Positions 1,722 to 36,973 of a DNA stretch of 62,360 nucleotides are shown one piece after another. The stretch is from a virus (lineage: Duplodnaviria > Caudoviricetes). Made by a program: the position numbers and the translations under genes. Every line of letters begins with the position of its first letter. Position 1 is the first letter of the stretch. The notes below the pieces were generated by a model. It saw only the letters and a program-made list of their open reading frames with translations. It made no database searches and was not told the origin of the DNA. The stretch lies in IMG/VR virus record IMGVR_UViG_3300005607_000002, positions 1 to 62,360 of that record; one strand, written 5' to 3'.

Positions 1722-4127
1722 ATGACCTCGATCCGCCGCTTTATCGCGGGAGCGCTCGCGCTCGGCTGGATGTTCGCGGCGCCGGCTGTCGTGCTGCTGC
1801 CGTCCGGGCCGGCCGGAGCGACCGTCAACACCTCGGCCAACAAGACGATCGTCGCCGGCAACGGCGCGCAGACGGTCTTTACGTTCAACTTTATCGGCGT
1901 GGCGGCGCAATACATCAGCGTCGTCTATACCGATGCGTTCGGCAACCAGACCACGCTGACCCAAGGCTCGGGCGCGACGCAATACCAGTTGAGCCTCAAT
2001 CCGCCGGTCCAGGGCGCGGTGTGGGGCGTCGGCGGCACGGTCACCTACAATCCGAACGGCACGCCGATCGCGGCCGGGACGACGCTCACCATCATGCGGA
2101 CGCTGCCGCTTACCCAGGCGGTGAGCCTCGCCAATCAGCAATCGGTGCAGGCGCTCGGCAACGGGGCGGAGACCGCGGTCGATACCGCAGTGATGCAGGG
2201 CCAGCAGATCTCGGAGCAGATCGGCCGCGCGCTGCAGATGAACGCCTCGAATGCCTCGTCCCCCAACCCGCTGCCGCCGGCCGCCCAGGCCGCCGGGCAG
2301 GGCCTGTGCTTTGACGGCAGCGGCAACAACGTGATTGCCTGTTCGCTCGCGCCCTCCGGCGTGATCTCCTCGGCGATGGCGCCCGTGGTGGACGCGGCGA
2401 GCCTCGCCGCCGGCCGCACCGCGCTCGGGCTTGGCACCATGGCGCAGGAGAACATCAACGCCGGGACCTGCGGCGGTGCGACCATCCAGGACGACGGGTC
2501 AGGCAATGCCCGTGCGAATCTGTTTTCCACGGTCGCAGACTCGGTCAGTCAGACCGTGACCTGCGCGTTCCATGGCACCCAGCGCATTGCGACCGGGCCC
2601 ATCACCTATACCCTGCCCCGGGCCAGCACTCTCTTTAACGGTTTCACTTTCAGGATCACGGCGCTTGCCGGTATCGAGACGCTTACTCCTAATGCCGCAG
2701 ATTCTTTCGCCGGCGGCGTCCCGTCAGGAACAAGCGCCACGATCCCTTCAGGCTCGACCTGCGCCATCACGACGGACGCGAAAACCTCCGGCACCTGGTA
2801 CATCGATTGCAATGCCGCGGGCGGCGTCGTCTCGCCGCTCACCTACGGGGCGCGTTGCGATGGCGGCACCGATGACACGGCTGCCGTTGCGCGGGCGATT
2901 AGCGCGCTAGGCTCGACGGGCGGCACCGTCCAGTTTCCCAATGCCAATTGCGCTTTCGCCGGCACGATTGCGATCGGAACCAGCGGCATTCATCTCAAAG
3001 GTGCGGGGATCAACGGCACCACGCTGACTTTCACCGGCGCTGGCGCTGCCGACGCCATCACGATCGGCACCTTTCCGGCCAGCGCCAATTGCACGGGCGC
3101 ATCGCCGCCGAGCAGTTGCCTGCAGATCACCGGCGTCTCCGTTGAGGACATGACGATTACCGCGCCGAATCGCACCGGAGGCTACCTGTTTGACATCAAT
3201 GGCGCCCGCGAGGTTCTGATACAGAAAATCTTTTATCCTTCGTCGTGGCTTCTCGCCGCCACGGCATATGTCAACAACGTCGAATTTCACCAGCTCAACG
3301 GCTATATCCGTTCGACGAGCGGCAGCTCGTACGGCATTCTCTTATATAACGCGATTACGACCGGCACGAACAGCGGCTGGTATCGCTCAGATCAGATCGG
3401 GTTCGATCATGTCTTCATGAACGCTCAAGCGGCCGGTGCCAACTGCTTTGGCTGGGACGGCATGGTCAATACCGTCGTGATGACGCATGTCGCGCTGCTC
3501 TCATGCGCCAACGGCCTCGTTGTGAACAACAGTCAGGCCAGCACCATGTGGTTTCCGCTGTTTCTTATGGCGGATGACTTGGAGGTCGACGGCTCGAGCC
3601 TGAATTCTGTTCTCATCAATGCCGGCCGCGACTTCCACATCGTCAACGGCGAACTGAACAATTCAGGGAACGGCAGCAGCCTGGCCAACTATCCGCTTGC
3701 GGTCAACTTCGACGCCAACTCCAACACGTGCTGTGTCTTCATCGACAATACGGCGATTCACGACACGTGGGGAGGCGCTGCTAAAATCGATGTCCAGGAT
3801 GTCACGATCTCGAACAGCCATTTTTTCGATACGAATCATGCCGGCAACGGCATGGCGCCAACGATAGACATCACCGCGCACGCATCCAACGTCCTTGTCA
3901 CCGGCTCATTTCTTGGTCAGCGCTACGGCGATTCCAACAAGCCGAGTTACGGCATCCAGGTCGAAGCCGGCGCAGGCGTGGTCTCCGCGGCGCACAACAG
4001 TTATTCCGGGACGACCGTCAACAACGTCAACAATCTCTCGGCCAATATAATGGGTTTTCTCGGCGGCATCACAAGAACAAACGGAATCAATACGGCAACG
4101 ACATGCGCCGCCGCAACGGCCTGCTGA
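1722..4127 (+). CDS. Tail fibre/spike with podovirus-type N-terminal anchor and beta-helix (pectate-lyase-like) domain
   Basis: AAGGAG RBS; GNGAQTVFTFNF...GGTVTY...GTTLTIMRTLP anchor pattern; YGARCDGGTDDTAAVARAI beta-helix start; G/N/T/S rich. Confidence 0.8.
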   Translation: MTSIRRFIAGALALGWMFAAPAVVLLPSGPAGATVNTSANKTIVAGNGAQTVFTFNFIGVAAQYISVVYTDAFGNQTTLTQGSGATQYQLSLNPPVQGAVWGVGGTVTYNPNGTPIAAGTTLTIMRTLPLTQAVSLANQQSVQALGNGAETAVDTAVMQGQQISEQIGRALQMNASNASSPNPLPPAAQAAGQGLCFDGSGNNVIACSLAPSGVISSAMAPVVDAASLAAGRTALGLGTMAQENINAGTCGGATIQDDGSGNARANLFSTVADSVSQTVTCAFHGTQRIATGPITYTLPRASTLFNGFTFRITALAGIETLTPNAADSFAGGVPSGTSATIPSGSTCAITTDAKTSGTWYIDCNAAGGVVSPLTYGARCDGGTDDTAAVARAISALGSTGGTVQFPNANCAFAGTIAIGTSGIHLKGAGINGTTLTFTGAGAADAITIGTFPASANCTGASPPSSCLQITGVSVEDMTITAPNRTGGYLFDINGAREVLIQKIFYPSSWLLAATAYVNNVEFHQLNGYIRSTSGSSYGILLYNAITTGTNSGWYRSDQIGFDHVFMNAQAAGANCFGWDGMVNTVVMTHVALLSCANGLVVNNSQASTMWFPLFLMADDLEVDGSSLNSVLINAGRDFHIVNGELNNSGNGSSLANYPLAVNFDANSNTCCVFIDNTAIHDTWGGAAKIDVQDVTISNSHFFDTNHAGNGMAPTIDITAHASNVLVTGSFLGQRYGDSNKPSYGIQVEAGAGVVSAAHNSYSGTTVNNVNNLSANIMGFLGGITRTNGINTATTCAAATAC

Positions 4128-8044: not shown

Positions 8045-8293
8045 ATGGGCCATTCCCATCGGCGCCGAGAGCGCATCGAATTTCCGGTCATCTGCCCGAT
8101 ACACGCGGTTCCGTTCGTCCGGTTCACGGGCGTAGGCGGACGCTACTCGATGGGCTGCCCGCAATGTGTCGCCAAGCTGCGGGCCGACGTCCGGGCTGCG
8201 AAGGAGATCCATCGCAGATGGTCGCCGCTTAAGCGCGGCCGTAAACCGAAAAACCGTGTGCCGGACGACACAGGCGATGCGCCTGCGGCGTGA
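8045..8293 (+). CDS. Small basic putative Zn-binding protein
   Basis: CPIH...CPQC motifs. Confidence 0.4.
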   Translation: MGHSHRRRERIEFPVICPIHAVPFVRFTGVGGRYSMGCPQCVAKLRADVRAAKEIHRRWSPLKRGRKPKNRVPDDTGDAPAA

Positions 8294-10640: not shown

Positions 10641-10918
10641 ACTGCACCGGTTACTGCACCGGTTTTTGTCGCGCTCCACCGGTTTTCAGGGGTTTTTTTC
10701 CTGTTTTTTGTTGAATTTCCACGGCCGCGCCGAAGGCGATTGATGGCGTTATGTGATTGATTTGTATAATTATTTTTTAGTTTTCCAATGAGGTTTAAGA
10801 CGCCATAATTGCAATTGGCCCCAGGGTGGCGCACTGGGGGCGGTATCTTGAATTAGATCGAGAAATCAATCTGTTGTGCCCGTAAGATTGTCCGGCTGCA
10901 CCGGCTGCTGCACCGGTT
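10641..10918. other. Putative attP region with integrase arm-type repeats
   Basis: (A/G)CTGCACCGG(T/C)T at 10641, 10653, 10895, 10907 and a variant at 10673 flank an AT-rich core at the integrase 3' end. Confidence 0.7.
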
Positions 10919-12062
10919 TTTGCGCCTGCCGGCGCATCTCGCGCGCGCGGCGCTCCTGGGCGAGGCGCTCGATCGCGGCGGCGCGCTCGCCGTCGGCGAC
11001 ATCGGCGTAGGCCCTCAGCGTGGTCTTGATGTCCTCGTGGTCAAGCGCAAGCTGAACGATCTTCATGCCTTGCGCGGTGGGCACGGAGCGCAGGAGCTTG
11101 GTCGCAAAATCGCTGCGCAGGTCATGCCAGCGGAACCGGCTGACGCCGGTGAGGCCGGCCGCGGCGCGCACCGCATTCCATGCCCCGCGCAGCCCCTCGC
11201 GCGTCCACGGATAGCGCTCGCCCCTGACGATGCCGAGCCGCCGCACCGTATAGCGCGCCTCGAAGGTGAAGACGCGCGCCGGATGATGGCCGCGCAGCGG
11301 CCACAGGATGGCGCGGATGCTGGGCGTGATCGCGACGGCGATATCCTTGCCGCCGGCGCGGCCCTTGCCGGTCATCCGGATGACGCCGTCCTCCCAGTTC
11401 ACCTGCCGCCACTCGAGCGTATAGCAGTTGGTCTTGCGCTTGCCGCAGGTGCGGGCAAATTCGATCAGGGGCCAGAGGTCCGGGCGCAGCTCGGATATTG
11501 CCGCCGCCAGACGGCGCTCTTCGTCGGCCGTAAGCTCGCGCGGCTTGCGCTTCGGCTCGTCGAGCCAGAGCCTCCTCCACTCCGGCTCATGAGGAAAATG
11601 CCGTACGGCCGGCCGCAGATAGGTGAACAGCTTCTTGAGCTGCTCGGTCGTATCGTTGACCGCATAGGCCGAGACCGGGCGCGCCTTCTCGCCCTTGCCG
11701 ACGAGGTGGGCGCGCCGCCAGCGGATGAGGCCGAGCGCGTCGTCATGGGTGATGTCGGTGATAAGCTTCGCCGGCCCGAAATAGGTGATGAGCAGATTGA
11801 TCAGGCGCCGCGTGTTGTCGGCCCCGACGTGATGGTCGCCGACGTCGATCATGTAGCGGGCCGCCACCGCATCGAGCGTCAGCGCGACGCCGGCGTCCGC
11901 CTGCGCCTGCCGCTCGCTCTTTAATCTCTTTTCGATTTCGGCGGCGGCGATTTCCGCCTCGCGGCGGCTCGTTCGGCCTGTTGAGCGAGAAAGCTGACGA
12001 CCGTCGATCCAGACGTTGGTGTAGTAGAATTTCGATTGGCGCTTTTTGTAGACGGTGGGCAC
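10866..12062 (-). CDS. int: Tyrosine recombinase / phage integrase
   Basis: Arm-binding N-terminus (RSTGRTSRREAE), CGKR, WHDLRSDFAT, LDHEDIKTTLRAY catalytic motifs. Confidence 0.93.
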   Translation of the reverse strand: MPTVYKKRQSKFYYTNVWIDGRQLSRSTGRTSRREAEIAAAEIEKRLKSERQAQADAGVALTLDAVAARYMIDVGDHHVGADNTRRLINLLITYFGPAKLITDITHDDALGLIRWRRAHLVGKGEKARPVSAYAVNDTTEQLKKLFTYLRPAVRHFPHEPEWRRLWLDEPKRKPRELTADEERRLAAAISELRPDLWPLIEFARTCGKRKTNCYTLEWRQVNWEDGVIRMTGKGRAGGKDIAVAITPSIRAILWPLRGHHPARVFTFEARYTVRRLGIVRGERYPWTREGLRGAWNAVRAAAGLTGVSRFRWHDLRSDFATKLLRSVPTAQGMKIVQLALDHEDIKTTLRAYADVADGERAAAIERLAQERRAREMRRQAQKPVQQPVQPDNLTGTTD

Positions 12063-16647: not shown

Positions 16648-16890
16648 ATGGCCGCGGGCTCCGGCGTCATCGATCTCGAAATGGCGCTCCACTGCAAGAC
16701 GCGCGCCGCCGTGCGCGTCTCCGGCGACGGCGATGACAGGCGCGCCGTCTGGCTGCCGGCGTCGCTGATCGAGATCGCAGAAACCGGTCGCCTGATCACA
16801 GGCATCGAAAGCAGCGGGCAGACGGTGAAGCTGCCGCTGGTGACGGTGACGCTGCCGCAATGGCTTGCGGCCGACAAGGGGCTGATATAA
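16648..16890 (+). CDS. Hypothetical phage protein
   Basis: AVWLPASLIE...VTLPQWLAADKGLI pattern common in alphaproteobacterial phages. Confidence 0.65.
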   Translation: MAAGSGVIDLEMALHCKTRAAVRVSGDGDDRRAVWLPASLIEIAETGRLITGIESSGQTVKLPLVTVTLPQWLAADKGLI

Positions 16891-18260
16891 TGGGCCGGCG
16901 CAGCAAGCCGCCGCCGCGCCGCACGGCCGCGAAGATCAGGCGCATGCTGGAGGCCGGCGCCGGCGACGGCAAGATCGCGCGTGCGCTCAACGTGACGCGC
17001 CATGCGGTGCGCAAGATCGCAGCCGAGCGCGCCGCGGAGCTTGCGGCGCAAGCCGCGCGGCGGCGGCCGGATATGACGCTGCCGCTGGACTGCATCCATA
17101 TCGGCGACCGCATCCGCAAGGATTACGGCGACATCGCCTCGCTGGCGCGCTCGATCGACGCCAATGGGCTGCTCCACCCCGTCGTCGTGCGCGTGCGCGG
17201 CCCTCATCCCGACCGCAGCGTTGCGATGGGCGGCGGTTACGAGCTGGTCGCCGGCGAACGGCGGATGCGGGCGTGGCGGCAATCCCGGCGTTGCAACGAG
17301 CCGATTCCGGTGCGCGTCGTCGATCTCGCCTCGATCCGGCGCGGCGAATTTGCCGAGAATCACGAGCGCAAGAATTTCACGCCGTCGGAGCTGGTCGAGA
17401 TCAAGCGCCAGCTTGAAATCGAGTTCGATCTCAAGGGCGCGGCGGCGCAGCGTCGGCGCGCCGGCAAGAAGGCGGCGCCGGGCGAGGCCGGCCGCGCGCT
17501 GGATACGGTGGCCGCCTATGCCGGCCGCAGCGGCCGCACCATCGAGAAGGCCGAGCTGGTCGTTGCGGCGGCCGAGCGCGATCCGGAGCGCTTCGGGCCG
17601 ATCCAGGAGCAGATGGACAGATCCGGCAAGGTGGACGGGCCGGCGCGGCGGGTGCGCAACATGCTGGCGGCGGACGCCATCAAGGCCGAACCGCCGCCGC
17701 TGCCGATGCAGGGGCCTTACCGCACGATCGTCATCGACCCGCCGTGGCCGGCCGATCTTGACGGCGGCCGCGCCGTCGAAGGGCGCGGCTATTACCCTTA
17801 CGCGACGATGACGATCGAGGAGATCGCGGCGCTCGACGTGGCCTCGATCGCGCATCCGGACGGCTGCGCGCTGTGGCTTTGGATCACCAATTTCCACCTT
17901 GTGCGCGGCTGCCAGCTGCCGCTGCTCAAGGCCTGGGGATTTAATGCTTCGACGCTGCTGACCTGGTGCAAGCCTCAATTCGGCCACGGCCAGCGCCTGC
18001 GCGGCGCCACGGAACATGCGATTCTTGCGGTGCGCGGCGAGGTGCCGTGCCTCGCCGGCGAGCAGAGGACCTGGTTCGCCGACGAGCGGGGCAGAAAGCG
18101 CGAGCATTCCGGCAAGCCGGGCGAATTCTTCGATATCGTCCGCGAGGTCACTCCCGCGCCGCGCTATGCCTATCTCTTCGCCGGCCGCACTTTGCCGGCG
18201 GACTGGGACGGCCATGGCGACCGCTTCGGCGCGCCGGCCCAGGCGGAGGCCGCCGAATGA
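16890..18260 (+). CDS. ParB-like N-terminal domain fused to MT-A70-family adenine methyltransferase
   Basis: LARSIDANGLLHPVVV, LVAGERRMRA, ENHERKNFT; then TIVIDPPW, YATMTIEEI, LWLWITN, HSGKP. Confidence 0.88.
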   Translation: MGRRSKPPPRRTAAKIRRMLEAGAGDGKIARALNVTRHAVRKIAAERAAELAAQAARRRPDMTLPLDCIHIGDRIRKDYGDIASLARSIDANGLLHPVVVRVRGPHPDRSVAMGGGYELVAGERRMRAWRQSRRCNEPIPVRVVDLASIRRGEFAENHERKNFTPSELVEIKRQLEIEFDLKGAAAQRRRAGKKAAPGEAGRALDTVAAYAGRSGRTIEKAELVVAAAERDPERFGPIQEQMDRSGKVDGPARRVRNMLAADAIKAEPPPLPMQGPYRTIVIDPPWPADLDGGRAVEGRGYYPYATMTIEEIAALDVASIAHPDGCALWLWITNFHLVRGCQLPLLKAWGFNASTLLTWCKPQFGHGQRLRGATEHAILAVRGEVPCLAGEQRTWFADERGRKREHSGKPGEFFDIVREVTPAPRYAYLFAGRTLPADWDGHGDRFGAPAQAEAAE

Positions 18261-21058: not shown

Positions 21059-22834
21059 ATGCCTGTCGTTACCGACACTCGGATTTTAGAGGAGATCCTC
21101 GCATGTCCTTGCGTGCCAGTGACGCGCAGCTTGTTCGAGGAGGCGGTGGAGGCCGAAAAGCAGGTGTCGCCTGGTGCGGAATTGCCCTCGCCCGAGGGGT
21201 TGTCGGCTGCGGCGTCATCGGTGGCGCAGAAATCGGCATCCTCCCAAATGGGAAGGTCTGCGCGACGCGACCGCGGAAGCGGAAGCGGTACGCCGGAGAG
21301 CCGGGCGGCGCTCGACCGCCGGCTCGCATTCTATCCGCTGACCGATCTCGGCAATGCCGAGCGCTTCCGCGAACGTCAGCGCGGACGCCTGATCTGGGTA
21401 GCGGCAATGGGCTGGCACTGGTGGGACGGCCGCCGGTGGGCGCGCGACGGCGCGGAAGGGCGCGTGATGCTGGCCGCTCATGAGACCGTGCGTGCGATCC
21501 AGAACGAGGCTGCGGCGATCGCCGGCAGCGCCGACGACATTGCGGTGGTGATGCGCACGGTGTCGCGCCCGCTGAGCGAAATGCTCCGCGCCCACGGCCG
21601 GCAGTCGGAGAGCAACGACAAGCTTAACCGGCTGGCGAAGCAGGCTCAGGCCTATCTGGAAGTCTCGCCCGCGCAGCTTGATGCCGATCCGTTTGCGATC
21701 AACGTGCTCAACGGCACCATCTTCGTGCGGCGGCCGGGCGATCCGCTGCCGGCCGGCGTCGCCGGCCGGAGCGAGGGCTATGTGTATTTCCGCGAGCACC
21801 GGCCGGAGGACTACATCACGCGGCTTGCGCCGGTGGAGTATGACCCCGCCGCGCCGCGCGAGCGGTGGGACCGGTTTCTGGCCGAGGTGCAGCCGGTAGC
21901 GGCGATGCGGCGTCAGCTTGCGGCGTGGCGCGGCTACAGTCTCACGGGCGACATCAGCGAACAGAAGCTTTGCGTGTTCTTCGGCACCGGCCAGAACGGC
22001 AAGAGCGTGTTCGAGGACGTATGCTGCCATGTCGCCGGCGATTATGCGGCGACGACTCCGATCGAGACGTTCCTTGATGAAGGCCAGGCGCGCCGCGCCG
22101 GCCAGCCGACGCCCGATCTCGCCGGCCTCGCCGGCGTGCGCATGCTGCGCACCAGCGAACCCAATCGGGAGGGGCGTCTCAATGAGGGCCTGATCAAGCT
22201 TGCGACCGGCGGCGAGCCGATCCGGGCGCGGCACCTCAATCGCGATTTCTTCGAGTTCTATCCGCAGTTCAAGCTGACCATGAGCGGCAATCACCGGCCT
22301 CAGATTCGCGGGGCCGACGAGGGCATCTGGCGCCGCGTCGTGCTGGTGCCGTGGTCGGTGACGATCGCGCCCGAGCGCAAGGACCCGCGCTTGCGCCTGA
22401 AGCTGCGGGCGGAAGCGTCCGGGATTTTGAATTGGATGCTGGACGGCCTGTGCGACTGGCTCGACCACGGACTCGTGCTCGCGGCCGAGACGCAGGAAGC
22501 GACGGTTGAATACCGGCGCGACAGCGACCAGCTTGGCCGCTTCCTTGAGGCCTGCACCGAGCGGGCGCCGGGCGAGCGCGTGCAGTCGAGCGTGCTGCAC
22601 GACGTGTTCTGCGCCTGGTGCACGGCGAACGCGCTGACGGCCTGGAAGGGCCGCGGCTTTTCGGACGCCATGACCGAGCGCGGGTTCCGCAAGGACAAGT
22701 CAAGCGTGATGTTCTGGCTCGATTTGCGGCTGACGAAATCGCGCAGCGATTTTGTGGATGCCGAGGGGCGGCCTCGTCATCTGGCCGGCGCCGGCCAGCA
22801 GGAGGCGTTCGGCGCTGATGATTTTGTGATGTGA
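21059..22834 (+). CDS. P4-family / D5-like SF3 helicase
   Basis: TDLGNAERF, INVLNG, Walker A GTGQNGKS, IKLATGGEPIRARHL, GIWRRVVLVPW. Confidence 0.9.
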   Translation: MPVVTDTRILEEILACPCVPVTRSLFEEAVEAEKQVSPGAELPSPEGLSAAASSVAQKSASSQMGRSARRDRGSGSGTPESRAALDRRLAFYPLTDLGNAERFRERQRGRLIWVAAMGWHWWDGRRWARDGAEGRVMLAAHETVRAIQNEAAAIAGSADDIAVVMRTVSRPLSEMLRAHGRQSESNDKLNRLAKQAQAYLEVSPAQLDADPFAINVLNGTIFVRRPGDPLPAGVAGRSEGYVYFREHRPEDYITRLAPVEYDPAAPRERWDRFLAEVQPVAAMRRQLAAWRGYSLTGDISEQKLCVFFGTGQNGKSVFEDVCCHVAGDYAATTPIETFLDEGQARRAGQPTPDLAGLAGVRMLRTSEPNREGRLNEGLIKLATGGEPIRARHLNRDFFEFYPQFKLTMSGNHRPQIRGADEGIWRRVVLVPWSVTIAPERKDPRLRLKLRAEASGILNWMLDGLCDWLDHGLVLAAETQEATVEYRRDSDQLGRFLEACTERAPGERVQSSVLHDVFCAWCTANALTAWKGRGFSDAMTERGFRKDKSSVMFWLDLRLTKSRSDFVDAEGRPRHLAGAGQQEAFGADDFVM

Positions 22835-25559: not shown

Positions 25560-26168
25560 ATGCCTGCCTGCCGCGACCCTCAGCACGAGCGCTTCGCCCG
25601 CGCGCTCGCCGAGCAGTATCTCGCGGTGCCGCCGCCGCGCCGGCCGGTGCTGGAGGCCTTCAAGGCCGCGGGCTATGCCCCGCACAAGGGCAATGCCAGC
25701 CGGCTTGCCAGGCGGCCGGAGATCCGCGCCCGCGTCGCCGAGCTCCTCGAGGAGGCGCGCGAATACGCCGACATCCGCCTCGTCAAGGCGCTGGTGCGCG
25801 TCGATCGCATCGCCGACGCCAAGCTGCCGGACTATTACGAGCGCCGCGACGGCGCGCTGGTGCTGCGCGACATCACCGCGCTGCCGCCGCGCCTCGCCGA
25901 GGCCATCGCCGAGCTTGAATATCACGACGACGGCCGCATCAAGCGCATCAAGCTGCACGACAAGGCGCAGGCCAACCTCGCGCTGCTCAAGCATTTCGGC
26001 GGCGCCGGAGAGGCGGCCGAGCGCCGCGCCGACGTGAACATCTGGAATGTCCTCTCAGTCGAAGATCAGCGCGTGCTTGCCGATCTTGTCGAAGCTCTCG
26101 CCCGAGGGTCTGCGCCTGCTCTCGCGGGAGCTGCGGGCGAGAGCGCAGCAGCAGGCGCGGGAGCGTAA
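25560..26168 (+). CDS. terS: Terminase small subunit
   Basis: HERFARAL, AFKAAGY, NASRLARRPEIRARVAEL, IKLHDKAQANLALLKHFG; upstream of terL. Confidence 0.8.
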   Translation: MPACRDPQHERFARALAEQYLAVPPPRRPVLEAFKAAGYAPHKGNASRLARRPEIRARVAELLEEAREYADIRLVKALVRVDRIADAKLPDYYERRDGALVLRDITALPPRLAEAIAELEYHDDGRIKRIKLHDKAQANLALLKHFGGAGEAAERRADVNIWNVLSVEDQRVLADLVEALARGSAPALAGAAGESAAAGAGA

Positions 26169-26910
26169 GCTCTACTCCTATTACCCGGACGACGGCCCGC
26201 TCCGGCGCGAGCTCTATCCGCGCCATATGGAGTTTTTCGCCGCCGGCGGCTGGCATCAGCGGTTGCCGTCCTGTCCGGCCGATTGCGACGGCTCACCGCA
26301 TCGCGACCGGCTGATGCTCGCCGCCAATCGCGTCGGCAAGACCGAATCGGTCGGCGGCTACGAGGTCGCGCTGCACGCCACCGGCCGCTACCCCGCCTGG
26401 TGGCCGGGGCTGAAATTCCGCCGGCCGGTCGAGATCTGGGCGAGCGGCAAGAAGAATGAGACCACCCGCGACATCATCCAGGCCAAGCTGTTCGGCCCGG
26501 TCGCCTGGCGCGGGCGCGTCAAGACGCTGGCGGGCACCGGCCTCATCCCGGCCGAGGACATCGGCGCCGTGACGTGGAAGCGCGGCGTCGCCGATCTCGC
26601 CGACACCGTGCAGGTGCGCCACCGCTCCGGCGGATGGAGCGTGATCGGCCTCAAGAGCTATGAGCAGGGACGCGGCGCCTATGAAGGCACCGAGAAGGAT
26701 ATCATCTGGTTCGATGAGGAGCCGCCCGTCGATGTCTATGTGGAGGCCGGCATCCGCACCATGACCACGCAGGGCCATACGCTGCTCACCTTCACCCCGC
26801 TGGAGGGCATGAGCGAAGTGGTGCTCGAGTTCCTGCCCGGCGGCACGCTGCCGCCGCGGGACGAAAGCATGGCCCCTCATGTGCTCGAGGCGATCGGCCG
26901 CGGGGCCTAA
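26047..26910 (+). CDS. terL: Terminase large subunit, N-terminal ATPase part (P22-like)
   Basis: RLMLAANRVGKT, KSYEQGR, IIWFDEEPP, LTFTPLEGMSEVV. Confidence 0.88.
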   Translation: MSSQSKISACLPILSKLSPEGLRLLSRELRARAQQQARERKLYSYYPDDGPLRRELYPRHMEFFAAGGWHQRLPSCPADCDGSPHRDRLMLAANRVGKTESVGGYEVALHATGRYPAWWPGLKFRRPVEIWASGKKNETTRDIIQAKLFGPVAWRGRVKTLAGTGLIPAEDIGAVTWKRGVADLADTVQVRHRSGGWSVIGLKSYEQGRGAYEGTEKDIIWFDEEPPVDVYVEAGIRTMTTQGHTLLTFTPLEGMSEVVLEFLPGGTLPPRDESMAPHVLEAIGRGA

Positions 26911-26912
26911 GC

Positions 26913-27671
26913 ATGGGGGGCAAGTTCGTGGTCAACGCCGGCTGGGATCACGTGCCCCACTTGAGCGAGGAGCAGAAGGCGGCCGAGCTCGCCCGCATCC
27001 AGCCCTATCAGCGCGAGGCGCGCTCCAAAGGCATTCCGGCCCTGGGCGCCGGCGCGATCTATCCGGTGCCCGAAGACTATGTCCTGTGCGACCCGTTCGA
27101 GATTCCCGACTGGATGCCCCAGTGTTACGCCCTCGATGTCGGGTGGCACCGCACCGCGGCGCTGTGGGCGGCGCACGACATCAACTCGGATGTCGTCTAT
27201 CTCTACAGCGAGCATTACCGGGCCGAGGCCGAGCCGCCGGTGCACGCCAATGCGATACTCGCGCGAGGCAAGTGGATTCCCGGCGTCATCGACCCGGCGG
27301 CGCGCGGGCGCGGCCAGCGCGACGGCGAGCGGCTGATCAGGGTGTACCAGGAGCTCGGGCTGCAGCTTCTTTTCCCGGCGGCCAACGACATCGAGGCGGG
27401 CATCTACGAATGCTGGATAAGGCTTTCGACCGGCCGCATGAAGGCATTCCGCAGCCTGCAGAACTGGCTTGCGGAATTCCGCTTCTACCAGCGCGACGAG
27501 AGAGGCCGCGTGAAGGACGGCCAGCCGGACCACCTCATGGACTGCATGCGCTACATTCTACTCTCCGGACTTCCCCGCGCCGTGGTGCGGCCGCCCTCGA
27601 TGTGGACGGCGCGCGGCCTCGTCGCGCGGCATACGGCCGACTATGATCCGCTCGCCTACGGAGACCGCTGA
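26913..27671 (+). CDS. terL: Terminase large subunit, C-terminal nuclease part
   Basis: WDHVPHL, REARSKGIPALGAGAIYP, ALDVGWHRTAA, DHLMDCMRY. Confidence 0.88.
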   Translation: MGGKFVVNAGWDHVPHLSEEQKAAELARIQPYQREARSKGIPALGAGAIYPVPEDYVLCDPFEIPDWMPQCYALDVGWHRTAALWAAHDINSDVVYLYSEHYRAEAEPPVHANAILARGKWIPGVIDPAARGRGQRDGERLIRVYQELGLQLLFPAANDIEAGIYECWIRLSTGRMKAFRSLQNWLAEFRFYQRDERGRVKDGQPDHLMDCMRYILLSGLPRAVVRPPSMWTARGLVARHTADYDPLAYGDR

Positions 27672-27918: not shown

Positions 27919-28131
27919 ATGACCAACAAGGCAATCGCCACTCTGGTGCCGACGCAATCCGACGCTGAGATTGCGGCTGACCTCAAGCGCCGCGTCATCG
28001 AGGCGCACGAGCCAGTGCTGGCGCTGCTTGACGAGGCTCATGCCGCAGGATTTGAGATCATTTGCGGATGCGGCCTGGCGCCGACCGGACGCCATGTGAT
28101 CACGCATCTGCGTATCGCGAAGCTGTATTAG
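27919..28131 (+). CDS. Hypothetical protein
   Basis: AGGAG RBS before MTNKAIATLVP. Confidence 0.5.
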   Translation: MTNKAIATLVPTQSDAEIAADLKRRVIEAHEPVLALLDEAHAAGFEIICGCGLAPTGRHVITHLRIAKLY

Positions 28132-28137
28132 CCCCGC

Positions 28138-28440
28138 ATGGCCCGCGCTCTTTGGCGGCCCGGCCGGTCGGCCGCGCCGCTGCCCGACGGCCGGGCTTTG
28201 CCGCAGGGAATGTCGCCGGAGGCGCGCGCGCAGCGCGAGGATATTGCGGCGGCGCTCGCGGACCCTGAATGTCCGGCGCATGTGTCCAAGCCGCTGCACG
28301 CCACCCGCGATCAATATGACGCGCTTGTCGCCGAGCGCATGCGCACCATGACGCTCGCCGAGCGTATCGATATCGAGATTGCGCTCACCCAGCGCCGCCG
28401 GCGCGTGCACGCGTTCGACTATGATCCACTGAGGTATTGA
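28138..28440 (+). CDS. Hypothetical protein ending in DYDPLRY
   Basis: ORF in late operon. Confidence 0.5.
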   Translation: MARALWRPGRSAAPLPDGRALPQGMSPEARAQREDIAAALADPECPAHVSKPLHATRDQYDALVAERMRTMTLAERIDIEIALTQRRRRVHAFDYDPLRY

Positions 28441-28743
28441 TGGGCCTCTATACTCCGCCGCCGGCCGGCACGCCGCCCCCTCCGCTATTCGGCGCTGCCG
28501 AAAGCCAGCAGCCGCCCTTCATGCGGGCATGGATGCTGCCGATGGACTACCTCGGCGACATCACCGGCATGACGGGGAAAATACAGCAGATGCGGGCCCA
28601 AGCCGGCGCCTCCGCGGGTGCCCCCGGTATCCCGTCCGGCACGCCGGGCCTGCGCCGCCAGCCGGTCGGCAACATCGGTGGAGGGGCTGGACGGTAGTCC
28701 GAATGCGCCGCTGTCCGACTTTGGATCATCCGCCGAGGTATTG

Positions 28744-28965
28744 ATGGGCCTGTTTGCTCCTTCTCCCCCGCCTGCGCCGCCGCCTCCGCCGCCTCCGCCC
28801 CCGGCGGCGTCGCCGCCGGTCTATGCCAGCGCGGCGACCATGGGAGCGCTGGCCCGCCGCACCCAGGGGAGACCGATGGGCGGCACTGACCTGACCACCG
28901 GGCAGAAGCAGGCCGGCGTTGTGCAGACCGCCGCTCTCGGGCTGGGCGGGACAGGGACGCCGTGA
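28744..28965 (+). CDS. Small proline-rich protein of the kind found upstream of podoviral portals
   Basis: GAGG RBS, MGLFAPSPPPAPPPPPPPPP...GGTDLTTGQ. Confidence 0.6.
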   Translation: MGLFAPSPPPAPPPPPPPPPAASPPVYASAATMGALARRTQGRPMGGTDLTTGQKQAGVVQTAALGLGGTGTP

Positions 28966-29146
28966 TGCTGGCCTATACCGAGCCTGAGATCGAGCTGGCT
29001 CGCGAAATCATGTGCGAGCAACTCGGCGGGACAGAGACCAATCGGCGTTTTGCGAGGCATGCGGCCGGTCTCCATGCCGAACATGTCGATTTCTGCCTGC
29101 AGCTCGCCCGCTGTGTCCTCAGAAGGGCCGGCACGGGATCGCCGTG

Positions 29147-30910
29147 ATGCTGCGGCGCTATACCTTCAAGGTGCATTTCAGCAAGCGCCGCGCCATGCGG
29201 CGCGCGCAGGAGGAAGCCGCGATGCGCTTCGCGCGGATGGCGGCCGAGCTGCGCAATGCTCTGATTGAGCTATGCTACAACACCTACTGCTGCCGCTGCG
29301 AGAGGGCCGGCGCGCCTCCTCCCGTCGACCCTCGTGTGGTTGCCTATGCCGTACGGGACAGGACCAAGGCAGAGGCGCGCGAGATCATCGCCTCCTACCG
29401 GCGCGGCCTCGGCGGCTCGATGCGGCGCAGCGAGCCGCAATGGCACAAGCCCGAGCGCCCATGGCCGCAGGAGCGCAAGGAAAAGCTGCGCGCCACGATG
29501 CGGCGTCGCGAAGAGGAAAAGCGCGCCAGGCGCAAGGCGCCGGCGAAGCCGCGCAAGCCGCCCCGGCAAGCCAGCGTGCGGGCGCTCGCGCTGGCGGAGC
29601 TCACCGGCGAGATCACGGCCTTGCGCTGGGCCTGCCCCGAGTGGGCCGAAATGCCGACCCATATGCAGCATCGGGTCGCCGACGGGCTCGTCAAGTCGCT
29701 CGCCGCCCTCATGCGCGGCGACGCGAAAGCGCCGCGATTCAAGCGGACCGATCGCGCGAACCGGCTCCCGCTCGGCGCCAAAGGCTATAAGCTCGCGCCG
29801 CAGGGCCGCGAGCGGTCGCGCGCCGGCCGGTCCCGCGCGAGCGCTCGAAACTGGAAATTGACCGTCACGGGGCTGCCGGGGCACATGCGCGCCGTCGGCG
29901 AGTTCCCGGCCGAGGTCAGGCAATGGAAGACGGCCGATCTGATTTTCCATGCCGGATCATGGTGGCTATCGGTATGCGTTGAGATTGAGCGCGAGCGCTC
30001 TCACGGCGCAGAAGAGGTTACGGTCAGGCTCGGCCTGATCGACGAGTTTGCCCATGTGGAAGGGGCAACGGGTCCACGCTGGTGCCCGGGCGAGGGCGTT
30101 CGCGCCTGCGCCGAAAGTCCGCATCGTTTCCACGACTTGGCAGGAGGCTCTGACAACGCCGCAGATGCCGTTGCGGATGGGCGGGCCGGATTGGCCGGCA
30201 TTGGCCACATAGGAGCGAGGTCTGACAACGCCGCAGATGCCGTTGCGGATGGGCGGGATCAGGACGGTTGCCGGAATCCTCGGCGACTACCACCTGACAA
30301 CGCCGCAGATGCCGTTGCGGATGGGCGGGATCAGGACGGTTGCCGGAATCCTCGGCGACTACCACCTGACAACGCCGCAGATGCCGTTGCGGATGGGCGG
30401 GTTATCAAACCTTTCTCGATCCCTCAATCAAAACGGCCGGCCGAGCCGGTCGCAGACGCCGCCGCCGACGCCCTCAAGGCCGAGCGCGACCGCCGCTACC
30501 GCCGCGGCTCGCGGCGATGGCGCCGCGCCGCCCGGCGCATCGCCAGGATCGAGGCCCGCGCCGCCCGCAGGCGGCGCGAGCGCCATCATCTGTGGACATC
30601 GCAACTCGTGCGCTGCGCCGGCGCCATAACGGTGATCGCTCCCGACATTCCGCAATTCACGAAATCAGGGCGCGGCGACGCGCGGAACTGGGGCGCCAAC
30701 GTCAAGCTCGCCGCCGCCCTCAACCGTCACATCCTCGGCCAGGCGCCGATGCTCGCCGTATCGATGCTGCAATACAAGGCCGAGGAAGCCGGAATCCGGT
30801 GCGACCTCATCGAAGACGACGCGCCGGAGATCGCCGTCGGCCGCGACCACGTCGCCGCCGGCAAAGCCCAGCGCCGCCTGCGGCGCGCCATCAGAAAGGA
30901 CGCAGCATGA
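29147..30910 (+). CDS. TnpB/Cas12-like RNA-guided DNA-binding protein, predicted nuclease-dead, with internal in-frame CRISPR-like array
   Basis: TnpB-like order: RRYTFKV, LRNAL, ITALR..CPEW, APRFK, WWLSVCVE, degenerate RuvC-I VTVRLGLIDEFA, Arg-rich helix RRGSRRWRRAARRIARIEARAARRRRERHH, degenerate RuvC-II ITVIAPDI, LNRHILGQA...MLQYKAEEAG; no Zn finger or RuvC-III. Confidence 0.8.
   Translation: MLRRYTFKVHFSKRRAMRRAQEEAAMRFARMAAELRNALIELCYNTYCCRCERAGAPPPVDPRVVAYAVRDRTKAEAREIIASYRRGLGGSMRRSEPQWHKPERPWPQERKEKLRATMRRREEEKRARRKAPAKPRKPPRQASVRALALAELTGEITALRWACPEWAEMPTHMQHRVADGLVKSLAALMRGDAKAPRFKRTDRANRLPLGAKGYKLAPQGRERSRAGRSRASARNWKLTVTGLPGHMRAVGEFPAEVRQWKTADLIFHAGSWWLSVCVEIERERSHGAEEVTVRLGLIDEFAHVEGATGPRWCPGEGVRACAESPHRFHDLAGGSDNAADAVADGRAGLAGIGHIGARSDNAADAVADGRDQDGCRNPRRLPPDNAADAVADGRDQDGCRNPRRLPPDNAADAVADGRVIKPFSIPQSKRPAEPVADAAADALKAERDRRYRRGSRRWRRAARRIARIEARAARRRRERHHLWTSQLVRCAGAITVIAPDIPQFTKSGRGDARNWGANVKLAAALNRHILGQAPMLAVSMLQYKAEEAGIRCDLIEDDAPEIAVGRDHVAAGKAQRRLRRAIRKDAA
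30150..30401. CRISPR. Intragenic CRISPR-like array: 4 x 36-bp repeat, 3 x 36-bp spacers
   Basis: CTGACAACGCCGCAGATGCCGTTGCGGATGGGCGGG at 30150, 30222, 30294, 30366; hairpin CCGCA/TGCGG; spacers 2 and 3 identical; possible degenerate fifth repeat at 30441-30476. Confidence 0.85.
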
Positions 30911-31188
30911 GCTACGACGTGAAGACTCCGGTGCTTGCCGATACCATCCGCTTCCTGCGCAACGCCTCCAACGGCCTCGCCAAAGGCACGATGGAAGCCA
31001 AAGAGGCCAAGGCCATCGCAGCCGTTGAGAACGAGGTGATCAAGGCGGTCGGCATGGACGTCAAGGCGCGTCTGGCGCTCCCCAAGATCAGCGCAATGGA
31101 AGCCCAGCTCATCGAAGAGCGCCCGGCCGCTCCCGCGATCGAAAAGGCTGCGCACGCGGCTGCTCCGGCGATCGAAAAGGCCGCGTAA
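30907..31188 (+). CDS. Small helical protein translationally coupled to the Cas12-like gene
   Basis: AAGGA RBS, ATGA overlap; MSYDVKTPVLADTIRFLRNAS... Confidence 0.65.
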   Translation: MSYDVKTPVLADTIRFLRNASNGLAKGTMEAKEAKAIAAVENEVIKAVGMDVKARLALPKISAMEAQLIEERPAAPAIEKAAHAAAPAIEKAA

Positions 31189-31208
31189 GCGGCGATGGGA
31201 GCCGTCTG

Positions 31209-31391
31209 ATGGACCGGCTGTTCCTGCAGCGCGGCACCTCGTTCAGCTTCGAGCGCACGGTGGCCGATGACGCGGACGTGCGCTGGTCCGTCTATCACGA
31301 CGGCGAAGCGCAGATCGGCTTTGCCGCCGCGTCCGACGCGTATGCGTGGCTCAAGAAGCGGCTGAGCCGCAAGGGCGCGGGGGCCGGATAA
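31209..31391 (+). CDS. Hypothetical protein
   Basis: GGGAG RBS; abuts the portal start. Confidence 0.45.
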   Translation: MDRLFLQRGTSFSFERTVADDADVRWSVYHDGEAQIGFAAASDAYAWLKKRLSRKGAGAG

Positions 31392-33263
31392 ATGCTCTCC
31401 CCCTCCGCCATCGCCCGCCGCTTCGGCGACGCGCTCCTCGCCCATTACGAGCTCGCAGGTGACGCTCTGCTCGCCCGCGCGCCCGCGCTGGCCAAGCAGC
31501 GGTGGTACGAGGAATCCGGCGGCTGGGAGGAAACGCGCCTGCAGCTTGAGGGTCGCCTCTACGGCCTGCGCAACTGGCGGCTTTCGTGGTGGCAGCACTG
31601 GGGGAAGATCGCCGAGGCGATCCTGCCGCGCCGCTACCACTGGCTGGTCGTGCCGAACACCATGACGCGCGGGCTTGCCATCAATCAGGCGATCAAGGAC
31701 CCGACCGGCGCGCAGGCGGTGTCGGTGTGCGTCGCCGGCATGCGCTCGGGCCTGATGTCGTCGTCGCGGCCGTGGTTCAAGATCGGCGCAGGCCTCGCCG
31801 GCCGCAAGCTCGACCGCGCCGCCGAATTATGGTTCGAGGACACCAACGATCGCGTCTACCGCGTCCTCGCCGGCTCGAACTATTACAACGCCGGCACCCA
31901 GATGTTCGAGGACCTCGTCGTCTTCGGCACCGCGCCGAAGCTGCTCTACGAGGACCGCATCAGCGTCATCCGCTGCTATAACCCGTGCGCCGGCGAATAT
32001 TATCTCGGCGCCGGCTTCGACGGCCGCATCAATTCGTTCTACCGCACTTTCGTGCTGACCGCGCTGCAATGCGTGCAGATGTTCGGGCTCGAGCGCTGCG
32101 CGGAACAGCTGCGCGGCCTGTGGGAGCAGAAGGGCGCGTCCCTCGAAACCGAGGTGATCGTCGCCCACGCGATCGAGCCGAACTTCTCCCTGCAGACGCC
32201 CGGCACAAGCGAAAATCTCGGCGTCGTCCCCGGCGGTTTTCCCTATCGGGAATATTACTGGGAATGGGGCAAATACTCCCCGCAGCCGCTTTCCGTCCGC
32301 GGCTTCCGCGACAAGCCCTTCATCGCCCCGCGCTGGACCACGGTTTCGAACGACGCCTATGGCCGCAGCGTCGGCATGGATGCGCTGCCCGACATTCTCC
32401 AGCTGCACGTGATGACGATGCGCCAGGCCGAAGGCATCGAAAAGATGCTGCGGCCGCCGCTGCTCGCGAGCCTCGGCCTCAAGAACCAGCCGTCCTCGAT
32501 CCTGCCCGGCAAGGTCACCTATGTGGAGGACGTGAACAAGGGCATGAAGTCGATCTACGACGTGCGGTTTGACGTCGAGCACATGACTGCGCTGATCGAA
32601 AAGATCGAGGCGCGCATCGAGAAATGGTTCTTCAACGACGCCTTCATGATGATGGACAACCTCGAAGGCGTGCAGCCGCGCAACGAGATGGAGATCGCCG
32701 AGCGCCGCGGCGAAAAACTCCAGCGCCTCGGGCCGGTGGTCGAGAACGTCGAGCAGGAGCTTGCCGACGATATCCGCCGCGTCGTCAATATCATGGCGCG
32801 CCGGCGCCTGCTGGCGCCGATGCCGCCGAGCCTCGCCGGCATCCCTCTGGAAATCGAATTCGATTCGATGATCCGCATCGCCCAGCGCGCCGCCGAAACC
32901 GCGGTCATGGAGCGCGCGCTCACCGTGGTGACGAATCTCAGGCAGGCTTATCCGGACCAGCACCCGGAGGACAACATCGACATCGACGCCGCCGTGCGGC
33001 GCTATCTCGACCGCTCCAATTTTCCCAAGGAATGCCTGCGCAGCGAGGACGAAGTGCAGCAGGTGCGCGCCGGCCGCGCCAAGGCGATGGCCGAGCAGGC
33101 GCAGCAGGCGCAGGCGATGCAGGCGATTACTCACGCGGCGCCGGCCGCCGCCGGCGCGGCCAAGACCGCAAGCGAAATCGACACCGGCGGCATGCTCAAC
33201 GCCCTGCAGATGATGTCCGGAATGGGCGGCGCTGCGCCCGGCGCGACGGGGCTGCCCCAATAG
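31392..33263 (+). CDS. Portal protein (head-to-tail connector, BPP-1 Bbp21-like)
   Basis: SGLMSSSRPWF, SNYY, DLVVFGTA, APRW...AYGRS..MDALPD, EIAERRGEKLQRLGPVVE. Confidence 0.9.
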   Translation: MLSPSAIARRFGDALLAHYELAGDALLARAPALAKQRWYEESGGWEETRLQLEGRLYGLRNWRLSWWQHWGKIAEAILPRRYHWLVVPNTMTRGLAINQAIKDPTGAQAVSVCVAGMRSGLMSSSRPWFKIGAGLAGRKLDRAAELWFEDTNDRVYRVLAGSNYYNAGTQMFEDLVVFGTAPKLLYEDRISVIRCYNPCAGEYYLGAGFDGRINSFYRTFVLTALQCVQMFGLERCAEQLRGLWEQKGASLETEVIVAHAIEPNFSLQTPGTSENLGVVPGGFPYREYYWEWGKYSPQPLSVRGFRDKPFIAPRWTTVSNDAYGRSVGMDALPDILQLHVMTMRQAEGIEKMLRPPLLASLGLKNQPSSILPGKVTYVEDVNKGMKSIYDVRFDVEHMTALIEKIEARIEKWFFNDAFMMMDNLEGVQPRNEMEIAERRGEKLQRLGPVVENVEQELADDIRRVVNIMARRRLLAPMPPSLAGIPLEIEFDSMIRIAQRAAETAVMERALTVVTNLRQAYPDQHPEDNIDIDAAVRRYLDRSNFPKECLRSEDEVQQVRAGRAKAMAEQAQQAQAMQAITHAAPAAAGAAKTASEIDTGGMLNALQMMSGMGGAAPGATGLPQ

Positions 33264-36091: not shown

Positions 36092-36973
36092 ATGTCGAGC
36101 GATCAGATCGCCGCTGCGGCCGACGGACCCGCGCTTGCAGCCGACGCCGAGCCGGCCGCCGCCAATGCAGCCGCGGCCGCCGAGGGGGCGGCCTCGACGG
36201 CCGCGCCCGAATCAGCTACGCCGGAATCCGCGCCGAGCCTGCTCAGTTCGGCGGCGGGAAAACAACCCGCACAGCCGGCCCCGGCTGCAGACGCCGAATC
36301 AGAGCCTGACGCCAAAGCGGCCGATGCCCCCGAGTCCGGCAAGGACGGCGGGCAACCCGCGAAGCCGGATGACCCCGGCAAGGCCAAGGCCGAAGGCAAG
36401 GCGGATGCCGCGACCGACCCGGCCAAGGACGCCACGGCGAAAGATCCCCCGGATCAGCCCCCGGCCCTGAGCCTTGAGGACTTGAAATTCCCTGAGGGCA
36501 TGGCGCTCGACGCCGAGGCCGGCAAAGCATTCGTTGATCTCCTCAACAATGCTGCGCTCACCGGCAAGGACCGCGGCCAGGCGCTCATTGACCTTCACCT
36601 CAAGGAAATCGACCGCGTTGCGCAGCACATCGCCGCCCATCAGCGCAAGGTCTGGAATGACCTCAACGCCGGATGGCAGGATCAGTTGCGCAAGGACCCC
36701 GAACTCGGAGGCAACAGGCTCGACACCACTCTGTCGCGCGCCAAGGCCGTGATCGAGGAATTCCTGTCGCCGGAGGACGCCAAGGCCCTGCTTATCCATA
36801 CCGACAACAACGGAATGGGGAATTTTCCCGTGTTCATCCGCCTGCTGAGCAACATCGGAAAGAGGCTCAACGTGTTTGAGGACAATATCGTCGCCGCCAA
36901 TCCGGCGCCCGCGCGCAGCCGCGCGCCCGGCAGCCGCGGCTGGTACGACAAGAGTCTTAACGCCGGCGGCTGA
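36092..36973 (+). CDS. Capsid scaffolding protein
   Basis: A/P/D-rich N-terminus, KDPELGG, GMGNFPVFIRLL; immediately before the capsid gene. Confidence 0.75.
   Translation: MSSDQIAAAADGPALAADAEPAAANAAAAAEGAASTAAPESATPESAPSLLSSAAGKQPAQPAPAADAESEPDAKAADAPESGKDGGQPAKPDDPGKAKAEGKADAATDPAKDATAKDPPDQPPALSLEDLKFPEGMALDAEAGKAFVDLLNNAALTGKDRGQALIDLHLKEIDRVAQHIAAHQRKVWNDLNAGWQDQLRKDPELGGNRLDTTLSRAKAVIEEFLSPEDAKALLIHTDNNGMGNFPVFIRLLSNIGKRLNVFEDNIVAANPAPARSRAPGSRGWYDKSLNAGG

Follow-up and report, generated by a model that had tools for sequence, protein, structure and literature searches.

A repeat–spacer array within the reading frame of a RuvC-inactive, TnpB-derived phage gene

TnpB is described as producing its guide from its own messenger RNA (mRNA) (PMC10278001), and the TldRs, nuclease-dead and truncated TnpB relatives of prophages and enterococci, as retaining RNA-guided DNA binding and repressing transcription (10.1101/2023.11.30.569447). 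Among the type V effectors of CRISPR (clustered regularly interspaced short palindromic repeat) systems, Cas12k is reported to be inactivated by point substitutions, and type V-M systems, carried by plasmids and some prophages, are reported to silence transcription without target cleavage and to act in conflicts between mobile elements; the same source describes viral mini-arrays of one or two spacers, free of cas genes, that target related viruses (PMC11656645). A phage-encoded type V system, Cas12r, is reported from Thermus phages (10.64898/2026.04.20.719267). Here we describe a gene (positions 29147–30910) of the 62,360-nucleotide (nt) phage record IMGVR_UViG_3300005607_000002 of IMG/VR, the whole of which we call the window, that encodes a TnpB-derived effector, P0001, and holds a repeat–spacer array in the middle of its open reading frame (ORF). 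With moderate confidence, we read it as a guide-RNA system carried by a phage, type V-like and TnpB-derived, that is nuclease-dead, lacks an adaptation module and has its array embedded in the frame of the effector itself. Arrays are usually viewed as non-coding sequence beside the effector, whereas here a whole clade of phage effectors keeps the array in frame; a literature search covering few subscription journals and no supplements gave no account of an effector ORF that contains an array and is translated together with it.

The array inside the effector reading frame

The features of the locus are the following (aa, amino acids; GC3, G+C content at third codon positions).

29147–30910, + strand: effector ORF, P0001, 587 codons; of TnpB descent, RuvC-inactive, truncated at the C terminus, containing the in-frame array
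29147–30046, + strand: N-terminal part, WED/REC-like up to the RuvC-I strand; phrog_506 positions 64–193, aligned to TnpB residues 10–273; GC3 about 0.8–0.9
30032–30034, + strand: codon of Gly296, at the RuvC-I catalytic Asp position by profile alignment to the 'GVDVG' of ISDra2 TnpB
30047–30149, + strand: pre-array segment; GC3 about 0.63, peptide conserved among the closest relatives
30150–30185, + strand: repeat 1 (36 nt)
30186–30221, + strand: spacer 1 (36 nt); matches nothing elsewhere
30222–30257, + strand: repeat 2
30258–30293, + strand: spacer 2 (36 nt)
30294–30329, + strand: repeat 3
30330–30365, + strand: spacer 3, identical to spacer 2; a recent unit duplication, absent from P0002
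30366–30401, + strand: repeat 4
30402–30437, + strand: post-repeat 36 nt; 42% G+C against 66% for the genome, unstructured
30437–30910, + strand: C-terminal part, with the Arg-rich helix, the remainder of the RuvC-like core to the 'YKAEEAG' block and a basic tail; guided_TnpB positions 240–336 of 389, Cas12f/Cas12u4 models
30635–30637, + strand: codon of Ile497, at the RuvC-II catalytic Glu position; Ile or Val across the family
30907–31188, + strand: gene of a small partner (93 aa), with an ATG overlapping the effector TGA; homologues follow the effector in relatives

A preliminary description of this DNA, made from the sequence alone, had reported four nucleotide-identical 36-nt repeats, separated by 36-nt spacers, in an uninterrupted frame of 587 codons, and a repeat scan together with the stop-free translation of all 587 residues bears this out. 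The copies start at 30150, 30222, 30294 and 30366, with a period of exactly 72 nt, and at up to three mismatches the complete genome contains these four on the forward strand and none on the reverse, a reversed-pattern control also giving none. Since spacers 2 and 3 are the same, the three spacers comprise only two distinct sequences. P0002, a protein from another contig, equals P0001 minus exactly one 24-aa unit and is otherwise identical. The 36 nt behind the last repeat are a junction or, alternatively, a last spacer that no repeat closes off, and the segment of about 100 nt that precedes the array may be a leader-like element.

Across the array, the frame of the ORF is free of stops, and the other two forward frames contain one and four. 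GC3 is 0.53 in the array segment against 0.82 and 0.86 in its flanks (0.88 in a portal-like gene nearby), so that the flanks resemble evolved coding sequence and the array does not. The same set of unitigs reproduces the array in sequencing runs X1, X2 and X4, which are possible source samples; unitigs break at the repeats, with the spacer-2 unitig at 1.3–1.9 times the depth of the flanks and the repeat at about 3.3–3.6 times. In run X8, repeat 1, spacer 1 and repeat 2 are covered without differences, and 30287–30438 are uncovered.

Comparable loci in relatives allow the frame to be followed beyond this phage. Relatives' DNA comprised 14 IMG/VR loci and 22 metagenome loci, four duplicating IMG/VR contigs, with few members of the clade that carries arrays in the ORF; loci were retrieved by peptide patterns in either half of the protein, such that an intact frame was not a requirement. 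The in-ORF units measure 72, 72 and 72 nt in the window; 75, 72, 72, 75 and 75 nt in locus L031; 72, 72, 75, 72, 75 and 75 nt in L032; 66, 66, 66 and 57 nt in L034; and 66 nt in L036. All 19 are divisible by three (14 of 14 with each shared spacer entered a single time), as against 12 of 37 spacers in arrays outside the gene, whose lengths take every value from 35 to 41 nt and some shorter ones (Fisher P = 3.7e-7); the earlier prediction that spacers keep the frame holds for the in-ORF units without exception. Furthermore, the N-terminal and C-terminal halves share one frame with no intervening stop in 21 of the 21 loci in which both were found, the remaining 4 of 25 lacking a half.

Ratios of nonsynonymous to synonymous differences (pN/pS) in the domain behind the array are 0.10 (L034–L044), 0.10 (L034–L036) and 0.00 (L036–L044), and those of the N-terminal part are 0.65, 0.82 and 0.07 for the same three pairs. 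These ratios show purifying selection on the domain behind the array. Together with unit lengths that are all multiples of three and the absence of stops, this indicates that in-ORF arrays are translated and that the downstream domain is needed.

The possibility that this is a decaying insertion sequence (IS) gene, its frame open by chance in G+C-rich DNA and its tandem repeat a product of chance or of assembly, has some points in its favour: long spurious ORFs are common at high G+C, catalytic residues and the C terminus are lost, and unitigs break at the repeats. We consider it next to negligible, as the same truncation is seen across a large conserved family, the sequences before and after the array are both under purifying selection, 19 of 19 units keep the frame, the same unitigs recur in three runs with repeat 1–spacer 1–repeat 2 covered in a fourth, and no transposase is present. 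The size of the family and its tree, both given below, contradict this explanation, as do pN/pS and the keeping of frame.

Two sibling loci capture the array in the course of change. L031 and L032 show no differences over 447 flanking codons, yet their spacers differ: relative to L031, L032 has an extra 5' spacer, another spacer replaced and a 3-nt indel, with the three 3'-most spacers in common. By this comparison, array content changes at a higher rate than point mutations build up, through either acquisition or recombination.

Descent of the effector and arrays across its family

Compared with TnpB/Cas12 profiles, both halves of the ORF match TnpB-type models colinearly, in line with the preliminary description of the flanks as TnpB-like. 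The N half falls on positions 64–193 and the C half on 224–312 of phrog_506 ('transposase', 403 positions). The NCBIfam model guided_TnpB matches residues 445–551 on profile positions 240–336 of 389 (E = 1.4e-13), its 50.9 bits lying below the curated cut-off of 100; P0001 also matches NCBIfam IS607_TnpB (2e-7), the type V c2c8 model (5e-7) and a series of PADLOC models, with Cas12f (2e-16) and Cas12u4 (7e-16) at the head of a range that reaches 1e-6 and includes Cas12u2. A family profile, built from 106 members for comparison with structure chains, matches solved ISDra2 TnpB (8bf8/8h1j) with E = 7e-24 and chain 9j09_A, named 'Transposase', with 4e-26; no Cas12m chain is among its 13 PDB matches.

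At RuvC-I, the Asp of the family's 'FDL' aligns to the Asp of TnpB 'GVDVG', and most members keep it, P0001 having Gly296 instead. At RuvC-II, the Glu of TnpB 'IEDL'/'FEDL' aligns to Ile or Val in every member shown (Ile497 in P0001). P0001 ends about 40 residues past the 'YKAEEAG' block, before the Zn finger and RuvC-III, and this end point is family-wide, most family representatives stopping where P0001 does. Judged by these alignments, the effector descends from TnpB and all three RuvC catalytic positions are lost, the RuvC-I Asp in this phage and the RuvC-II Glu and the Zn-finger/RuvC-III end throughout the family. The missing RuvC-II Glu, Zn finger and RuvC-III had been recognized beforehand; so had the absence of the RuvC-I Asp, the replacing residue having been misassigned to Arg294, since the profile alignment to solved TnpB places Gly296 there. 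The same alignment locates the array site in the loop between the RuvC-I strands and the Arg-rich helix.

Residues of about 44–140 of P0001 (29276–29566) form a basic Pro/Arg/Lys-rich insertion that, among the aligned members, only P0003 shares.

An exhaustive search returned 542 family representatives at E ≤ 1e-3, a number that falls to 185 at 1e-10 and to 96 at 1e-30. There is no homologue among the cultured phages of INPHARED, because of which we think that annotation pipelines in which ORFs are split or masked at repeats have probably overlooked the family. A search of IMG/VR with the single protein gave no close relative, a 22-mer of the repeat is absent from IMG/VR as far as its records were open to search, and a protein scan of genome_contigs gave one weak locus.

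Among 36 aligned members, many have a repeated peptide of their own, its copies separated by variable sequence, at exactly the site used in the window, and others are empty there; the repeat peptides are hydrophilic and related between members. A repeated exact 5-mer occurs in 63 of 151 proteins, a count in which a few entries are likely false positives and from which diverged repeats, for example in P0003, are missing; of 93 units, 68 measure 22 aa and 13 measure 24 aa. We placed the 106 proteins of at least 380 aa in a FastTree phylogeny (midpoint-rooted, with long-branch warnings; P0002 and 44 shorter proteins were left out), which divides into a clade of 28 rows, 27 of them without repeats, and a clade of 78 rows. 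Within the latter, in-ORF arrays predominate on a branch of 77 rows (support 98), all 41 rows with 22-aa units fall in one 62-row subclade (support 100), and the window protein clusters with other members that have 24-aa units. Variable-spacer arrays at the same site in homologues, which the preliminary description had proposed as a check, are therefore present on a large scale.

Where loci with in-ORF arrays were available, every copy found lies inside the ORF (4 of 4 in the window, 6 of 6 in L031, 7 of 7 in L032 and 5 of 5 in L034). The repeat of L031 and L032 is 35 nt long, with six and seven nucleotide-identical copies, and is identical to the window repeat at 26 of 35 positions. L034 has five copies of another type of repeat, L036 has two copies, and L044 and L045 have one each; repeat types track protein clades.

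The array is not confined to this position. In L007, L009–L013, L016 and L017, the two effector halves are contiguous, and the gene has an array of 36-nt repeats downstream of it. L009, for example, has the effector (408 aa), a 78-aa gene overlapping the effector stop, seven pattern-matching repeats and diverged copies beyond. A consensus-pattern scan of five phage records (G001–G005) gave 80 matches, 79 of them on the gene strand, and none with a reversed-pattern control; in G001, G003 and G005, 33 of 33 matches are at the effector locus. Arrays are regular, with unique spacers of 36–41 nt, in G001, G003, G005, L007 and L013. In G002 (L010) and G004 (L012), the records contain 26 and 21 copies of the same repeat core of about 28 nt; most of them form clusters immediately upstream and downstream of the gene, and nearly all are on the gene strand. 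L006 combines a single in-ORF repeat at the array site (3543–3570; 24 of 28 matches to its own external core) with external copies, and may be intermediate in layout; in the eight further loci with external arrays, the gene itself contains no repeat copy. With relatives bearing the same kind of array outside the gene, and with a large clade bearing it inside, the layout cannot be regarded as unique to this phage. On these comparisons, a repeat–spacer array is a conserved partner of the protein family, located downstream in one clade and at a fixed surface-loop site within the ORF in another, large clade.

The repeats of the external-array loci, together with that of the window (32 repeats), were compared with a fold model of two short helices in which the loop of the first hairpin pairs with a downstream stretch. 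Helix cells are paired in 93.8% of cases, against 21–48% when partners are slid, and 26 cells show double changes against 5.7 in shuffles, with 0 of 500 shuffles as high, a control that does not amount to a probability for related sequences. The covariation indicates that the two-helix fold holds for family repeats of the external-array clade rather than for the window repeat in particular.

These observations bear on a purely protein-level explanation, in which the array would be a variable tandem peptide repeat, for instance a hypervariable surface loop, with no role as RNA. Translation of the array in frame fits this, as do hydrophilic repeat peptides that are related between members. We nevertheless regard it as very improbable: the repeats are identical at the nucleotide level and the stretches between them unrelated, GC3 in the array falls to 0.53, homologous arrays of the sister clade lie outside the gene, non-coding, with repeats read in all three frames, and the covariation supports a fold of nucleic acid. 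The earlier view of the array as CRISPR-like rather than a protein repeat is supported by this identity of repeats, by the unrelated spacers and by the turnover between siblings with identical flanks.

Alternatively, the array might be a virus-borne mini-array that borrows host Cas proteins and merely sits where a loop tolerates it, in a domesticated TnpB-like gene to which it is unrelated. Viral mini-arrays of this size without cas genes are on record (PMC11656645), and the window, with no more than two distinct spacers, lacks cas1 and cas2. Against this, the array goes with the protein family in all layouts (inside, downstream and on both sides of the gene) and is always co-oriented with it, repeat types track protein clades (26 of 35 identities between the window and L031, with L034 different), and one insertion site is used repeatedly in the 77-row clade, all of which makes this explanation quite improbable.

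The family also has a second gene. Homologues of the 93-aa partner directly follow the effector in 16 of the 37 loci examined (two of which duplicate other loci), which makes the original description of a 'one-gene' system doubtful, and the partner may be a second component. It matches no Pfam, PHROG or PADLOC family, only unnamed viral clusters being given by the atlas. In the window, the partner gene has a 33-nt tandem duplication at 31119–31184.

Guides, targets and other roles for the repeats

If the locus is a guide-RNA system as we propose, ancestry and precedent suggest how it might work. The sense transcript would be both mRNA and guide precursor; we read the array on the sense strand because it is co-oriented with the gene. 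Like TnpB and Cas12, the protein would bind the repeat and retain the neighbouring spacer for guidance, and the complex would bind matching DNA without cutting it, preventing a rival mobile element, a host gene or a phage gene from being transcribed or replicated. By binding or cutting the message that encodes it, the effector would also limit its own synthesis.

A comparison of all spacers with all relatives' DNA gave, beyond duplicates and shared spacers, only one match, which lies within G005. The spacer at 36214–36249 of G005 (16214–16249 of L030) agrees at 35 of 37 positions with 8075–8113 of the same genome, the 3' end of a tail-fibre-like gene; the alignment has a gap and a mismatch close to its repeat-proximal end. 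In IMG/VR, this spacer finds only itself and no perfect target. The pattern of the match would fit targeting of a related competitor.

Several observations weigh against a guide system. The only protospacer found is imperfect and in the same phage. The two spacers of the window match nothing in the window, INPHARED or IMG/VR (the last searched as exact 22-mers), the two private spacers of L032 match nothing in IMG/VR, and neither the L011 array, compared with phages and plasmids, nor the L032 array, compared with plasmids, gave a match. Spacers are duplicated in the window and in G003; the gaps between copies in G002 and G004 are irregular (11–59 nt, taking a 36-nt repeat window), unlike those of a ruler-made array; and the phage lacks the adaptation genes cas1 and cas2. 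The repeats had been called hairpins at the outset, and their identity stands, but the window repeat alone folds no better than shuffles (z −0.35 and −0.14), and its loop is 4 nt longer than in the modelled repeats and out of register in alignment A4. Wobble pairs (5 G.U against 10 A.C cells) do not favour the sense strand. Finally, 44 of 151 representatives are shorter than 380 aa; some of these could be frame-broken genes, which would weaken the argument from frame keeping, or fragments at contig ends. A search for an anti-repeat found none, the best match being 14 of 15 nt (E = 0.31).

The main rival to a guide system draws on several of these points. In it, the repeats would be protein-binding elements in RNA or DNA that serve no guide function, such as autoregulatory operators, processing or stability sites, or regulatory sites of the late region, and the spacers would be tolerated filler. 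It would accommodate irregular spacing in G002 and G004 together with their 21–26 copies to either side of the gene, the near absence of spacers with a detectable target, duplicate spacers, missing adaptation genes, and solo in-ORF repeats in L006, L044 and L045. Regular arrays with unique spacers of 36–41 nt in G001, G003, G005, L007 and L013 are less readily accounted for, fast replacement of spacers between siblings with identical flanks is hard to explain if spacers are filler, the ancestry of the protein lies among guide-using enzymes, and one spacer does match a phage gene. We judge this explanation unlikely, if the most serious of those considered. Caution is warranted in applying a strict CRISPR-array label, since copies are unevenly spaced in G002 and G004, some spacers are duplicated and adaptation genes are lacking.

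Reasoning by analogy, the guide-RNA reading can be taken further, to a dual-coding array, which we put forward only tentatively. The transcript would be translated straight through the array and also be cut or bound by its own product into guides, so that the effector would throttle itself and each gain of a spacer would rewrite a loop of the effector. Spacers would enter without Cas1–Cas2, selection admitting only stop-free units that are multiples of three, and the whole would be a minimal, self-contained phage DNA binder and a living intermediate between TnpB and CRISPR–Cas12. Should the RNAs prove to be guides, one message would serve also as the precursor of several guides, a natural negative-feedback design would be on offer, the locus would bear on the transition from TnpB, with a guide overlapping its ORF, to Cas12, with a separate array, and the gain of spacers without Cas1–Cas2 would become a concrete puzzle. 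The array-free members, at about 400 aa (408 aa in L009) and nuclease-free, are of interest as potential compact programmable DNA binders.

Genome context and comparison with known systems

The phage record is complete, with direct terminal repeats and 66% G+C, and is that of a soil phage. Profile searches of the complete phage, in which positive controls worked, gave no match for Cas1, Cas2, the Y1 transposase PF01797 or the serine recombinase PF00239, confirming that neither cas1/cas2 nor a transposase is present, as already noted from the sequence. The genome contains no transfer RNA genes, an Rfam scan of 28000–32000 returned nothing relevant, and a promoter scan of 28500–31500 found none.

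The effector's neighbours are terminase-like, portal-like and a small unfamiliar gene. Two adjacent ORFs, 26047–26910 and 26913–27671, may form a split or unusual terminase, the second matching only the C-terminal part of large terminase profiles (phrog_2 425–595 of 807) and the first a PHROG of unknown function. Elsewhere, the genome encodes an integrase at 10866–12062 (− strand), from which the phage is probably temperate, a ParB-like/DNA methyltransferase fusion at 16860–18260 (+ strand) and a primase at 21059–22834 (+ strand).

Against the systems described so far, the locus shares features with several. Like TldRs, the effector is TnpB-derived and phage-carried, has a mutated RuvC triad and a truncated Zn-finger/RuvC C terminus, and comes without a transposase; the TldR definition, at least two RuvC triad positions mutated and often a C-terminal truncation, describes it. 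TldRs are reported with a single guide RNA beside the gene and a linkage to fliC or oppF (10.1101/2023.11.30.569447), whereas here arrays of short repeats with changing spacers, often within the ORF, accompany a different conserved small partner gene.

TnpB with its omegaRNA (IS200/IS605, IS607) gives the best sequence matches, and its guide scaffold overlaps the 3' end of its ORF; by analogy, a TnpB guide made from its own mRNA is the nearest precedent for a message that doubles as guide precursor. TnpB is an active nuclease, however, with a DED triad, a Zn finger and one guide per element, in an IS with TnpA, whereas the present effector has no triad, Zn finger or transposase and has many repeat–spacer units in the middle of its ORF.

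With Cas12m (V-M), Cas12k (V-K) and the V-F/V-U effectors, the locus has in common a TnpB-descended single effector plus a repeat–spacer array, but those effectors keep a complete RuvC fold and external arrays, whereas here RuvC-III and the Zn finger are gone and the array is, by the evidence above, translated. An effector of TnpB/RuvC ancestry with a direct-repeat array and variable spacers, within or beside the gene, is what defines type V in operation, and it is found here; a complete three-motif RuvC, be it active or inactivated by point changes, and cas1/cas2, the latter optional in several subtypes, are not.

Viral mini-arrays and Cas12r, as their sources describe them, likewise concern viral arrays without adaptation genes and conflicts between mobile elements; the mini-arrays rely on host Cas and host repeats, Cas12r is an active nuclease with an external array, and neither is described within a coding sequence. 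Overall, by its sequence features, the effector falls outside TnpB proper on triad, Zn finger and IS context, and within both the structural definition of TldRs and the operational definition of type V.

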